Shown here one piece after another: positions 10,354 to 44,296 of a DNA stretch of 64,000 nt. The DNA is from Escherichia coli. Lineage in GTDB: Bacteria; Pseudomonadota; Gammaproteobacteria; Enterobacterales; Enterobacteriaceae. The notes below the pieces were generated by a model. The model made no database searches, had not been told where the DNA came from, and saw only the letters and a program-made list of their open reading frames with translations. Numbering within the stretch: position 1 is the first letter of the stretch; each line of letters begins with the position of its first letter. The DNA is taken from NCBI RefSeq assembly GCF_044324785.1, contig NZ_CP172127.1; one strand, 5' to 3'. Both the position numbers and the translations under genes were made by a program.

Positions 10354-10449
10354 TCAACGGATAACGTAGCATTTACTGATAGCGTCATTATAATGACGCC
10401 TGTTCATGCCTGCGCTTGTTGGCTACGTCCGTTGTAATCAGGAAATTTC

Positions 10450-11148
10450 ATGGAAAATCAACCTAAGTTGAATAGCAGTAAAGAAGTAATCGCGTTTCTG
10501 GCCGAACGTTTTCCCCACTGTTTCAGTGCGGAAGGTGAAGCGCGTCCGCTGAAAATCGGTATTTTTCAGGATTTGGTCGATCGTGTTGCCGGGGAAATGA
10601 ACCTGAGCAAAACGCAATTGCGATCCGCTTTACGTCTCTACACTTCGAGCTGGCGTTACCTTTACGGTGTTAAACCCGGCGCAACGCGTGTCGATCTTGA
10701 CGGCAACCCATGCGGTGAGCTGGACGAGCAACATGTAGAGCATGCTCGCAAGCAGCTTGAAGAAGCGAAAGCGCGTGTTCAGGCACAGCGTGCTGAACAG
10801 CAAGCGAAAAAACGCGAAGCTGCCGCAGCTGCTGGTGAGAAAGAAGACGCACCGCGCCGTGAACGCAAGCCACGTCCGACCACGCCACGCCGCAAAGAAG
10901 GCGCTGAACGTAAACCTCGTGCGCAAAAGCCGGTAGAGAAAGCGCCAAAAACAGTAAAAGCACCTCGCGAAGAACAGCACACCCCGGTTTCTGACATTTC
11001 AGCTCTGACTGTCGGACAAGCCCTGAAGGTGAAAGCGGGTCAAAACGCGATGGATGCCACCGTATTAGAAATCACCAAAGACGGCGTCCGCGTCCAGCTG
11101 AATTCGGGTATGTCTTTGATTGTGCGCGCAGAACACCTGGTGTTCTGA
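10450..11148 (+). CDS. proQ: RNA chaperone ProQ
   Basis: 232-aa [28 protein letters not shown]... with basic Ala/Lys/Arg/Glu-rich linker then C-terminal domain. Confidence 0.9.
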
Positions 11149-11167
11149 AACGGAGGCCGGGCCAGGC

Positions 11168-13216
11168 ATGAACATGTTTTTTAGGCTTACCGCGTTAGCT
11201 GGCCTGCTTGCAATAGCAGGCCAGACCTTCGCTGTAGAAGATATCACGCGTGCTGATCAAATTCCGGTATTAAAGGAAGAGACGCAGCATGCGACGGTGA
11301 GTGAGCGCGTAACGTCGCGCTTCACCCGTTCTCATTATCGCCAGTTCGACCTCGATCAGGCATTTTCGGCCAAAATCTTTGACCGCTACCTGAATCTGCT
11401 CGATTACAGCCACAACGTGCTGCTGGCAAGCGATGTTGAACAGTTCGCGAAAAAGAAAACCGAGTTAGGCGATGAACTGCGTTCAGGAAAACTCGACGTT
11501 TTCTACGATCTCTACAATCTGGCGCAAAAGCGCCGTTTTGAGCGTTACCAGTACGCTTTGTCGGTACTGGAAAAGCCGATGGATTTTACCGGCAACGACA
11601 CTTATAACCTTGACCGCAGCGAAGCGCCATGGCCGAAAAACGAGGCTGAGTTGAACGCGCTGTGGGACAGTAAAGTCAAATTCGACGAGTTAAGCCTGAA
11701 GCTGACAGGAAAAACGGATAAAGAAATTCGTGAAACCCTGACTCGCCGCTACAAATTTGCCATTCGTCGTCTGGCGCAAACCAACAGCGAAGATGTTTTC
11801 TCGCTGGCAATGACGGCGTTTGCACGTGAAATCGACCCGCATACCAACTATCTTTCCCCGCGTAATACCGAACAGTTCAACACTGAAATGAGTTTGTCGC
11901 TGGAAGGTATTGGCGCAGTGCTGCAAATGGATGATGACTACACCGTTATCAATTCGATGGTGGCAGGTGGCCCGGCAGCGAAGAGTAAAGCTATCAGCGT
12001 TGGTGACAAAATTGTCGGTGTTGGTCAAACAGGCAAGCCGATGGTTGACGTGATTGGCTGGCGTCTTGATGATGTGGTTGCCTTAATTAAAGGGCCGAAG
12101 GGCAGTAAAGTTCGTCTGGAAATTTTACCTGCTGGTAAAGGGACCAAGACCCGTACTGTAACGTTGACCCGTGAACGTATTCGCCTCGAAGACCGTGCGG
12201 TTAAAATGTCGGTGAAGACCGTCGGTAAAGAGAAAGTCGGCGTTCTGGATATTCCAGGTTTCTATGTGGGTTTGACAGACGATGTCAAAGTGCAGTTGCA
12301 GAAACTGGAAAAACAGAATGTCAGCAGTGTCATCATCGACCTGCGTAGCAATGGCGGTGGGGCGTTGACTGAAGCGGTATCGCTCTCCGGTCTGTTCATT
12401 CCATCCGGTCCGATTGTTCAGGTCCGTGATAACAACGGTAAAGTTCGTGAAGACAGCGATACCGATGGGCAGGTTTTCTATAAAGGCCCGCTGGTGGTGC
12501 TGGTTGACCGCTTCAGTGCTTCGGCTTCAGAAATCTTTGCCGCGGCAATGCAGGATTACGGTCGTGCGCTGGTTGTGGGTGAACCGACGTTTGGTAAAGG
12601 CACCGTTCAGCAATACCGTTCATTGAACCGTATTTACGATCAGATGTTACGTCCTGAATGGCCAGCACTGGGTTCTGTGCAGTACACGATCCAGAAATTC
12701 TATCGCGTTAACGGCGGCAGTACGCAACGTAAAGGCGTAACGCCAGACATCATCATGCCGACGGGTAATGAAGAAACGGAAACGGGTGAGAAATTCGAAG
12801 ATAACGCGCTGCCGTGGGATAGCATCGATGCCGCGACCTATGTGAAATCGGGAGATTTGACGGCCTTTGGACCGGAGCTGCTGAAGGAACATAATGCGCG
12901 TATCGCGAAAGATCCAGAGTTCCAGAACATCATGAAGGATATCGCGCGCTTCAACGCTATGAAGGACAAGCGCAATATCGTTTCTCTGAATTACGCTGTG
13001 CGTGAGAAAGAGAATAATGAAGATGATGCGACGCGTCTGGCGCGTTTGAACGAACGCTTTAAGCGCGAAGGTAAACCGGAGTTGAAGAAACTGGATGATC
13101 TACCGAAAGATTACCAGGAGCCGGATCCTTATCTGGATGAGACGGTGAATATCGCACTCGATCTGGCAAAGCTTGAAAAAGCCAGACCCGCGGAACAACC
13201 CGCTCCCGTCAAGTAA
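11168..13216 (+). CDS. prc: Tail-specific protease Prc (Tsp)
   Basis: Track ORF 11120..13216 trimmed to MNMFFRLTALAGLLAIAGQTFA (signal peptide), 682 aa; 19 nt after the proQ stop. Confidence 0.9.
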   Translation: MNMFFRLTALAGLLAIAGQTFAVEDITRADQIPVLKEETQHATVSERVTSRFTRSHYRQFDLDQAFSAKIFDRYLNLLDYSHNVLLASDVEQFAKKKTELGDELRSGKLDVFYDLYNLAQKRRFERYQYALSVLEKPMDFTGNDTYNLDRSEAPWPKNEAELNALWDSKVKFDELSLKLTGKTDKEIRETLTRRYKFAIRRLAQTNSEDVFSLAMTAFAREIDPHTNYLSPRNTEQFNTEMSLSLEGIGAVLQMDDDYTVINSMVAGGPAAKSKAISVGDKIVGVGQTGKPMVDVIGWRLDDVVALIKGPKGSKVRLEILPAGKGTKTRTVTLTRERIRLEDRAVKMSVKTVGKEKVGVLDIPGFYVGLTDDVKVQLQKLEKQNVSSVIIDLRSNGGGALTEAVSLSGLFIPSGPIVQVRDNNGKVREDSDTDGQVFYKGPLVVLVDRFSASASEIFAAAMQDYGRALVVGEPTFGKGTVQQYRSLNRIYDQMLRPEWPALGSVQYTIQKFYRVNGGSTQRKGVTPDIIMPTGNEETETGEKFEDNALPWDSIDAATYVKSGDLTAFGPELLKEHNARIAKDPEFQNIMKDIARFNAMKDKRNIVSLNYAVREKENNEDDATRLARLNERFKREGKPELKKLDDLPKDYQEPDPYLDETVNIALDLAKLEKARPAEQPAPVK

Positions 13217-37991: not shown

Positions 37992-39119
37992 TTGAATTAC
38001 CAAATGATTACCACGGACGATGCGCTGGCTTCTTTGTGTGAAGCCGTCCGTGCCTTTCCGGCGATAGCCCTGGATACTGAATTTGTTCGTACGCGCACCT
38101 ATTACCCGCAACTGGGTCTAATTCAACTTTTTGATGGTGAGCATCTGGCGCTAATTGATCCTCTCGGGATCTCCGACTGGTCACCGCTGAAAGCGATCCT
38201 GCGCGATCCGTCCATCACAAAATTTCTCCATGCGGGCAGTGAAGATCTGGAAGTGTTCCTCAATGTCTTTGGCGAATTACCACAACCCTTGATTGACACG
38301 CAAATCCTTGCTGCCTTCTGCGGACGCCCGATGTCATGGGGTTTCGCTTCCATGGTGGAAGAGTATTCCGGCGTTACGCTGGACAAGAGTGAATCGCGCA
38401 CCGACTGGCTGGCCAGACCGCTGACCGAACGTCAGTGTGAATACGCAGCGGCGGATGTCTGGTATCTGTTACCGATCACCGCAAAGCTTATGGTAGAAAC
38501 GGAGGCCTCCGGCTGGCTACCTGCGGCGCTGGATGAATGCCGCCTGATGCAAATGCGTCGTCAGGAAGTCGTTGCACCGGAAGATGCCTGGCGTGATATT
38601 ACCAATGCCTGGCAGTTACGCACACGCCAACTGGCCTGTCTGCAACTGTTAGCCGACTGGCGACTGCGCAAGGCGCGGGAGCGCGATCTGGCGGTGAACT
38701 TTGTCGTGCGTGAAGAGCATTTGTGGTCGGTAGCGCGTTATATGCCGGGAAGTTTAGGCGAACTGGACAGCCTGGGCTTATCCGGTAGCGAAATCCGCTT
38801 TCACGGTAAAACGCTGCTGGCGCTGGTGGAAAAAGCGCAGACATTGCCGGAAGAGGCCTTACCGCAGCCGATGCTTAACCTGATGGACATGCCGGGTTAT
38901 CGTAAAGCGTTTAAAGCGATTAAGTCGTTGATTACTGACGTGAGCGAAACGCACAAGATCAGCGCCGAATTGCTGGCATCGCGTCGGCAAATCAACCAAC
39001 TGCTGAACTGGCACTGGAAACTGAAACCGCAGAACAATTTGCCGGAGCTGATTTCCGGCTGGCGTGGTGAGCTGATGGCGGAAGCATTACACAATTTATT
39101 GCAGGAATATCCGCAGTAA
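37992..39119 (+). CDS. rnd: Ribonuclease D
   Basis: 375-aa ORF with DEDDy 3'-5' exonuclease and HRDC regions; recognised as Rnd. Confidence 0.9.
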   Translation: MNYQMITTDDALASLCEAVRAFPAIALDTEFVRTRTYYPQLGLIQLFDGEHLALIDPLGISDWSPLKAILRDPSITKFLHAGSEDLEVFLNVFGELPQPLIDTQILAAFCGRPMSWGFASMVEEYSGVTLDKSESRTDWLARPLTERQCEYAAADVWYLLPITAKLMVETEASGWLPAALDECRLMQMRRQEVVAPEDAWRDITNAWQLRTRQLACLQLLADWRLRKARERDLAVNFVVREEHLWSVARYMPGSLGELDSLGLSGSEIRFHGKTLLALVEKAQTLPEEALPQPMLNLMDMPGYRKAFKAIKSLITDVSETHKISAELLASRRQINQLLNWHWKLKPQNNLPELISGWRGELMAEALHNLLQEYPQ

Positions 39120-43210: not shown

Positions 43211-44296
43211 TTAACGCAAAATAATTTTGCAAATCGCGTCGGCAACCTGTGGCGTGGTGGCACTGCCTTTCATATCCGGTGTTTTCGGCCCGTGAGCAAT
43301 CACTTCTTCAATCGCTGCCAGAATACCGTTATGCGCTTGCTGGAAACGCTCATCGCCATTGCCGAGAAAATCGAGCATCATTGCACCGGCCCAAATTGTG
43401 GCAATAGGGTTAGCAATATTTTTCCCGTAGATATCCGGCGCGGAACCGTGAACAGGCTCGAAGAGCGACGGGAAAGTGCGTTCCGGATTCAGGTTGGCGG
43501 ATGGGGCAATGCCAATGGTGCCGGTGCAGGCCGGGCCAAGATCGGAAAGGATATCGCCAAACAAATTGGACGCCACCACCACATCGAAGCGTTCCGGCTG
43601 CATCACAAAACGCGCGCAGAGAATATCAATATGCTGCTTGTCCCAGCGGATCTCCGGGTAATTCTCGGCCATTGCTTCCACTCGCTCATCCCAGTACGGC
43701 ATGCTGATGGCTAAACCGTTTGATTTAGTGGCAGAGGTTAGCGTCTTACGTGGGCGGCTTTGCGCAAGTTCGAAGGCATAACGCAAAATGCGATCGACAC
43801 CACGACGCGTAAATACCGATTCCTGAATGACGACTTCATGCTCTGTACCTTCATTCACTCTACCGCCGAGCGAGGAATATTCGCCTTCGGTGTTTTCCCT
43901 GACCACGTAAAAATCGATGTCGCCAGGCTGTTTTCCCGCCAGCGGGCAGGGAACGCCAGGAAAGAGACGAACCGGGCGCAGGTTGACGTACTGGTCGAAT
44001 TCACGACGAAATTTCAGCAGCGAACCCCACAACGAAATATGGTCCGGAACGGTGTCCGGCCAGCCGACGGCACCAAAATAGATGGCGTCGAAACGGCTAA
44101 GTTGCTCATGCCAGTCGTCCGGCATCATTTTACCGTGATGGCTGTAATACTCGCAGCTCGCCCACTCCATTTGCTCAAAACTCAAGGCGAAGCCCCAGCG
44201 CTCAGCGGCAGCCTGTAACACGCGAATCCCTTCAGGAAGGACTTCTTTGCCAATCCCGTCTCCCGGGATCGCAGCAATACGCATCGTTTTCATCAT
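43211..44296 (-). CDS. dmlA: D-malate dehydrogenase (decarboxylating) DmlA
   Basis: 361-aa isocitrate/isopropylmalate dehydrogenase-family ORF MMKTMRIAAIPGDGIGKEV... Confidence 0.9.
   Translation of the reverse strand: MMKTMRIAAIPGDGIGKEVLPEGIRVLQAAAERWGFALSFEQMEWASCEYYSHHGKMMPDDWHEQLSRFDAIYFGAVGWPDTVPDHISLWGSLLKFRREFDQYVNLRPVRLFPGVPCPLAGKQPGDIDFYVVRENTEGEYSSLGGRVNEGTEHEVVIQESVFTRRGVDRILRYAFELAQSRPRKTLTSATKSNGLAISMPYWDERVEAMAENYPEIRWDKQHIDILCARFVMQPERFDVVVASNLFGDILSDLGPACTGTIGIAPSANLNPERTFPSLFEPVHGSAPDIYGKNIANPIATIWAGAMMLDFLGNGDERFQQAHNGILAAIEEVIAHGPKTPDMKGSATTPQVADAICKIILR

Follow-up and report, generated by a model that had tools for sequence, protein, structure and literature searches.

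Open reading frames stacked over the proQ linker of Escherichia coli are very probably shadow ORFs of a T-poor coding sequence

Background

Almost certainly, proQ is the only gene at the locus described here, and the four further open reading frames (ORFs A to D) that lie over its central part are shadow ORFs of its T-poor linker and helix coding sequence. The stack of ORFs over the proQ linker is real and more than a chance pattern, and its proximate cause is the depletion of T on the sense strand, which weighs more than either GC-richness or repetition of the DNA. Shadow ORFs, i.e., long non-coding ORFs in the alternative frames of real genes, are handled by gene finders and have been modelled statistically, and the proQ stack is an ordinary, already understood phenomenon. 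The locus lies in a 64,000-nucleotide stretch of Escherichia coli DNA (NCBI RefSeq assembly GCF_044324785.1, contig NZ_CP172127.1), the whole of which is referred to below as the window. A preliminary description of the locus had drawn attention to the stack and offered an account of its origin, and its claims are taken up together with the results that bear on them.

Methods

The structure of ProQ was modelled with AlphaFold on the basis of 28 orthologues. Frames open over at least 60 codons were located by a frame scan of the window, and one-strand stops were counted in 217-nt tiles placed every 50 nt along it. The expectation from the protein was obtained by resampling, in which the ProQ amino acids were kept fixed and synonymous codons were drawn from the codon usage of the window (34 long genes) in 5000 trials. 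Comparisons across species used 80 orthologous proQ loci from species-representative genomes of Enterobacteriaceae (80–99% protein identity), while the test of frame lengths by synonymous permutation within each gene used 81 distinct genes. An ORF was counted as intact in an orthologue when its start and its stop were kept and no internal stop was present.

Results

The proQ gene and its product

The gene and the parts of its product are located as follows.
10450..11148, + strand: proQ coding sequence, RNA chaperone ProQ, 232 aa plus stop (ORF, Pfam, RefSeq annotation)
10450..10806, + strand: FinO-like N-terminal domain, residues 1–119 (PDB 5NB9, Pfam PF04352)
10807..10989, + strand: basic low-complexity disordered linker, residues 120–180 (composition, entropy, pLDDT, NMR)
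10990..11145, + strand: Tudor-like C-terminal domain, residues 181–232 (Pfam ProQ_C 182–232, PDB 5NBB 180–232)

The preliminary description had named the gene proQ, and this name is secured by matches to the Pfam families ProQ/FinO (PF04352, residues 8–115, E = 1.6e−40, 137.9 bits vs. a cut-off of 27) and ProQ_C (PF17516, residues 182–232, E = 3.9e−24, 84.2 bits vs. a cut-off of 23.3), as well as by 100% DNA identity to E. coli RefSeq chromosomes on which proQ is annotated in the order msrC-proQ-prc. The RefSeq annotation beneath the match likewise gives the gene order msrC(yebR)-proQ-prc, and the 232-aa ORF on the + strand does hold the linker peptide that had been quoted from it. PDB entry 5NB9 matches residues 1–119 (E = 3.9e−75) and 5NBB matches residues 180–232, and the codon usage of proQ is best fitted by the coding class of a six-class codon model. 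The gene is carried by 5421 of 5426 complete E. coli genomes, and in 60 genomes sampled evenly from these 5421 it is the sole annotated gene at the locus. Both the three-part architecture and the msrC-proQ-prc neighbourhood are those of the studied E. coli ProQ (PMC5393179; PDB 5NB9, 5NBB), i.e., it is the same gene, and the protein of the window differs from that of E. coli K-12 at one residue only (A127T; at window position 10828, A127 in the window strain and T127 in K-12). Over proQ, the window strain and K-12 DHB4 differ at five positions, one of which changes an amino acid; the window strain is not K-12, and its proQ is 100% identical to that of E. coli strain N3.

The N-terminal domain ends, according to the AlphaFold prediction, in a long helix rich in K, Q, E, A and R (residues 93–127), after which no secondary structure is predicted for residues 128–178. 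The central part of the protein had been described as a disordered linker rich in Lys, Arg, Ala and Glu, a correct reading, which agrees with its composition, with the model and with NMR data (PMC5393179): the disorder prediction proposed in that description returned low pLDDT values (< 50) at residues 130–138 and 143–175, and residues 120–179 are covered by no solved structure. By NMR, SAXS and proteolysis, the inter-domain stretch of ProQ is a flexible, extended and charged linker (Gonzalez et al. 2017, PMC5393179). In the alignment of orthologues, the linker is the least conserved part of ProQ and carries indels (19 insertion columns).

Open frames over the linker

The following open frames and zones were found over the linker.
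10630..10980, − strand: shadow ORF A, of 116 aa from a GTG start, whose triplets coincide with the codons of proQ
10670..10963, − strand: shadow ORF B, 97 aa, GTG start
10742..10936, + strand: shadow ORF C, of 64 aa from an ATG start, in frame +1 relative to proQ
10779..10997, − strand: shadow ORF D, 72 aa, ATG start, rich in R, G, S and A, its wobble positions opposite those of proQ
10782..10933, both strands: zone in which five of the six frames are open over at least 60 codons (frame scan)
10782..10998, − strand: antisense stop desert of 217 nt, where the sense strand has no TTA, CTA or TCA in any register

All four had been reported as antisense ORFs, and the coordinates given for them are exact, but 10742..10936 lies on the sense strand, so that three are antisense. 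ORFs A, B and D occupy the three different antisense frames, one each. ORFs A and B overrun the linker by 140–180 nt, to 10630 and 10670, into sequence that codes for residues 61–119 of the folded N-terminal domain; this overrun covers the K/Q/E/A/R-rich helix in part, and helix residues 93–127 contribute to the open frames alongside the disordered segment.

The opposite strand had also been called stop-poor, which holds in full, with zero antisense stops over 10782..10998. This is the longest single-strand stop-free stretch in the window, where 217-nt tiles have a median of 8 one-strand stops and none is stop-free. A depth of five open frames of at least 60 codons is reached at 1.0% of the window positions, in eight places. 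Five frames are open, for example, at 43452..43625, inside a 361-aa dehydrogenase-like gene (43211..44296, − strand) that has no low-complexity segment, a case which means that ORF stacks arise without disordered linkers too. Another such place is 39071..39116, with all six frames open at 39076..39086.

T-depletion of the sense strand

The linker is strongly biased at both the protein and the DNA level. Of the 61 residues in ProQ 120–180, 48 are K, R, A, E or P, and the entropy is 3.09 bits vs. 4.07 in the N-terminal domain. The sense strand of the linker is composed of 33.9% A, 31.1% C, 26.8% G and 8.2% T (vs. 24.8% T across the window), with an AT skew of up to 0.63. Of the 22 T's within residues 98–179, none falls at codon position 1, 4 at position 2 and 18 at position 3. 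From base composition alone, the probability of a stop per triplet is as follows.
Window average: 0.048
GC content of the linker, no skew: 0.035
Linker as observed: 0.020–0.024

The stop-poor opposite strand had been attributed to repetitive, GC-rich coding sequence. The linker DNA is not repetitive, as Tandem Repeats Finder returned no rows for it and the direct repeats in it are short pairs of 10–20 nt, of a size expected by chance. It is GC-rich, moderately so (57.9% vs. 49.5% in the window), and this is a lesser driver than the depletion of T. Stop triplets number 6 per 183 nt in the linker, compared with a median of 10 in GC-matched tiles (56–60% GC) and 14 in all tiles. GC-richness was consequently rejected as a sufficient cause, and its contribution is partial.

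A sequence of steps very probably explains how the protein gives rise to the stack. ProQ residues ~98–179 (the end of the helix and the linker) consist almost wholly of K, R, A, E, Q and P and draw on the codons AAR, CGN, GCN, GAR, CAR and CCN, which can hold T, if anywhere, at the wobble position only, and T is scarce on the sense strand because these codons have none at positions 1 and 2. Stops in the five other frames all need a T on the sense strand, be it in TAA, TAG or TGA (sense) or in TTA, CTA or TCA (antisense), so that they nearly disappear over this segment, and their near-absence leaves long open frames in +1 and in all three antisense frames. The ends of ORFs A to D fall at the nearest accidental start or stop, and the four ORFs drift freely with synonymous changes in proQ and with indels in the linker. 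The +2 frame is the only closed one, and its stops come from NNT|GAA and NNT|AAA junctions (e.g., CGT|GAA and GCT|GAA), which create TGA and TAA, respectively.

Expectation from the ProQ protein

When synonymous codons were resampled on the fixed ProQ sequence, four alternative frames at the middle of the linker were open over at least 60 codons in 52% of the 5000 resamples, and at least three were open in 95%. The observed frame lengths are not above this expectation (P(sim ≥ obs) of 0.97, 0.65, 0.58, 0.12 and 0.75), and the +1 frame, which holds ORF C, is shorter than expected (65 codons vs. a median of 89, P = 0.97). The claim that the ORFs are spurious and stem from the amino acid composition of the linker is thus upheld, given that resampling rebuilds the stack and shows no excess of length. 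The stop desert is slightly more extreme than the ProQ sequence predicts, with zero antisense stops over 10782..10998 vs. 2.3 expected from the protein (P(0) = 0.056, a value biased downward by the post hoc choice of the boundaries).

A different reading is that the stack is a plain coincidence unrelated to the linker, of the sort met in any gene of a genome with ~50% GC. It could appeal to the seven other places in the window with five open frames, the one in the ordinary dehydrogenase-like gene among them, and to GC content, which alone tracks stop density (rho −0.69). Nevertheless, we regard it as extremely unlikely: the position of the stack matches that of the T-poor K/R/A/E/P segment exactly, GC-matched tiles hold more stop triplets than the linker, none of the other 217-nt tiles lacks stops on one strand, and the stack recurs in most orthologues as well as in 95% of the synonymous resamples. 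From this recurrence in orthologues and resamples it follows that the stack is a consequence of the protein sequence and no one-off accident.

Expression signals and database presence

A simple consensus scan found no sigma-70-like promoter on either strand between 10200 and 11400, and a simple consensus test found no Shine-Dalgarno sequence before the starts of ORFs A to D, whose anti-SD energies range from −1.1 (ORF A) to −3.0 kcal/mol (ORF C, within the random range), around a random median of −2.0 kcal/mol, compared with −4.3 kcal/mol for proQ itself. In the six-class codon model, ORFs A, B and C are best fitted by their own shadow classes (c-0, c-2 and c+1, respectively), and for ORF D a shadow class is likewise best, with the coding class fifth of six. 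The four ORF products gave no Pfam family even at E ≤ 1, and a collection of 15 billion proteins holds no exact copy of any of them. A structured or antisense RNA at the locus was considered and rejected, as a search of Rfam returned no family and its sole match, to a microRNA family, was a chance one far below threshold (E = 0.6, 20 bits vs. 70). Three matches to terminator-like hairpins followed by T runs occur within the linker on the antisense strand (10813..10858, −); they arise because the A-rich sense strand gives T runs on the antisense strand and, if functional, they would end antisense transcripts and thereby further hinder the expression of ORFs A, B and D.

In the published data sets, over the limited coverage open to us, no ORF overlapping proQ is mentioned: proQ, b1831, yebR and prc do not occur in the 18 supplementary files of a survey of embedded antisense overlapping genes in E. 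coli (where other locus tags may be in use), the Ribo-RET paper does not name proQ in its main text, and proQ appears once in the PIRT-Seq data, in a plain gene list.

The flanks of proQ hold several elements of their own. The msrC-proQ intergenic region (~100 nt) is nearly invariant across Enterobacteriaceae and contains a perfect 18-bp palindrome (GCGTCATTATAATGACGC, 10382..10399) that includes the consensus TATAAT and is kept exactly in 38 of the 80 loci. Judging by this sequence, the palindrome is probably the −10 element of the proQ promoter and possibly an overlapping operator as well; a weak −35 element is the reason why the consensus scan passed over it. In the mechanical ORF list, the downstream gene prc (11120..13216) is given a TTG start at 11120 and overlaps the end of proQ. 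The RefSeq start of prc is the ATG at 11168, 19 nt past the proQ stop, which opens a signal-peptide-like N-terminus (MNMFFRL...), and the gap between the two genes holds a GGAGG, a likely Shine-Dalgarno sequence.

Sense-strand ORF C

One could suppose that ORF C is expressed from the proQ mRNA, by internal out-of-frame initiation or by +1 frameshifting, and yields a small basic peptide. ORF C is indeed part of the transcript of an expressed gene and begins with ATG, out-of-frame internal initiation sites are known from E. coli (10.1101/520783), and the +1 frame is open over at least 60 codons in 90% of the orthologues. The probability of this reading is nonetheless close to nil. ORF C has no Shine-Dalgarno sequence and is shorter than the protein predicts, it is intact in none of the 80 orthologues (start kept in 49, stop kept in 3), and its translation has 49% identity across them. 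Even within E. coli its length varies, being 64 aa, 89 aa (CFT073 and AVS0223, where it is extended) or nil.

ORF C is missing in strain IAI1, where a 45-nt in-frame deletion in the linker (10816..10860) removes it and shortens all antisense ORFs. This deletion takes out 15 residues, leaves a ProQ of 217 aa and is flanked by short similar junctions (CGC|GAA and CGT|GAA); linker length thus varies both among E. coli strains and from one genus to another. In K-12, ORF B is cut from 97 to 67 aa by C10881T, a change that is synonymous in proQ.

Comparison across orthologues

The alternative frames are mostly open in the orthologues as well, which is what an effect of composition predicts, with widely varying lengths of 42–220, 26–151 and 5–172 codons in the three antisense frames. 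Synonymous permutation within the 81 genes gave mean P values of 0.36–0.67 for the antisense frames, with P < 0.05 in at most 4% of the genes. The +1 frame exceeded the permutation null at P < 0.05 in 12% of the genes, slightly above chance in a set of phylogenetically dependent sequences. The ORFs themselves are found in a patchy pattern, intact in 22 (A), 14 (B), 0 (C) and 9 (D) of the 80 orthologues. Of the nucleotide differences, 77.5% sit at codon position 3 of proQ, and the translated identity to E. coli is 0.88 for ProQ, compared with 0.54, 0.49, 0.49 and 0.82 for A, B, C and D. Synonymous sites of proQ show no extra constraint in the overlap zone, where synonymous diversity at conserved codons is 0.44 vs. 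0.36 elsewhere (equal or higher per amino acid). Conservation of the antisense ORFs independent of proQ, named in the preliminary description as the observation that would speak against spurious ORFs, was looked for in the 80 orthologues, and neither it nor purifying selection on the overlapping frames beyond the constraint on proQ was found.

ORF D requires closer consideration, given its higher identity. Elsewhere in proQ, the same frame class reaches translated identities of 0.87 and 0.78, and 76% of the D-frame triplets in the linker belong to four-fold codon boxes, since the antisense reading of R, A, E and P gives CGN, GCN, TCN and GGN. At the few informative Ala/Val sites, variants that change ORF D occur in 13 of 78, 19 of 81 and 23 of 69 sequences, and at one informative site a GCT|CA variant makes a stop in ORF D in four orthologues. 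In the Escherichia relatives L001–L003, ORF D is not intact. It has a premature stop in E. albertii, and its own stop is missing in E. whittamii and in a divergent E. coli (L003); in Salmonella, the ATG start is lost. Selection as an explanation for the 82% identity of ORF D and for the 96.7% of proQ-synonymous changes that are silent in its frame (vs. an unweighted expectation of 88.5%) was rejected in favour of frame geometry, four-fold boxes and freely varying informative sites. Such "conservation" of an antisense frame whose wobble positions lie opposite those of the host gene is a geometric artefact and no evidence of coding.

These observations bear on the view that one of the antisense ORFs, with D and A as the best candidates, is a genuine translated overlapping gene like nog1, ano, pop and asa of EHEC. 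Its appeal lies in the stop desert, which has no longer counterpart in the window and goes marginally beyond the expectation conditioned on the protein, in the identity and the co-silent changes of ORF D, and in claims of embedded antisense genes in E. coli (PMC9927249, PMC7103648). We consider it very improbable, as ORF D is intact in so few orthologues and is broken in its close relatives, its conservation equals that of its frame class and follows from the four-fold boxes, and a stop-creating variant occurs at one of its informative sites. ORF A is no better placed, its translation being 54% identical and interrupted by internal stops in 53 of the 80 orthologues, and the antisense ORFs together have no promoter or Shine-Dalgarno sequence that could be found, non-coding codon usage and no synonymous constraint on the proQ side. 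A further version, in which ORF D or A would be a young proto-gene restricted to Escherichia, with pervasive antisense transcripts of the linker-made stop desert feeding a low level of translation, is in our estimation highly unlikely too.

Discussion

Taken as shadow ORFs of proQ, ORFs A to D resemble those of other bacterial genes in every essential respect: they are embedded in a real gene, have the length that their host predicts, show shadow codon usage, lack expression signals and are unconserved. Nothing essential sets them apart, other than that they stand at the extreme end for this window, which they do because the disordered K/R/A/E/P linker strips the first two codon positions of T. 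We infer that none of the four is translated into a functional protein.

The experimentally supported antisense overlapping genes known from E. coli O157:H7 (nog1, ano, pop, asa and others; PMC5960689, PMC7103648, PMC9927249) are likewise ~60–200 codons long and embedded antisense in an annotated gene. They rest, however, on RNA-seq and Ribo-seq signal, promoters, and phenotypes or signs of selection, whereas ORFs A to D fail the tests of promoter, Shine-Dalgarno sequence, conservation and constraint.

What stands out as a cluster of ORFs above the well-known proQ gene is an artefact of annotation, and it matters only as a point of housekeeping. The same reasoning on T-depletion predicts that similar ORF stacks would be met over basic or acidic disordered linkers in other genomes.
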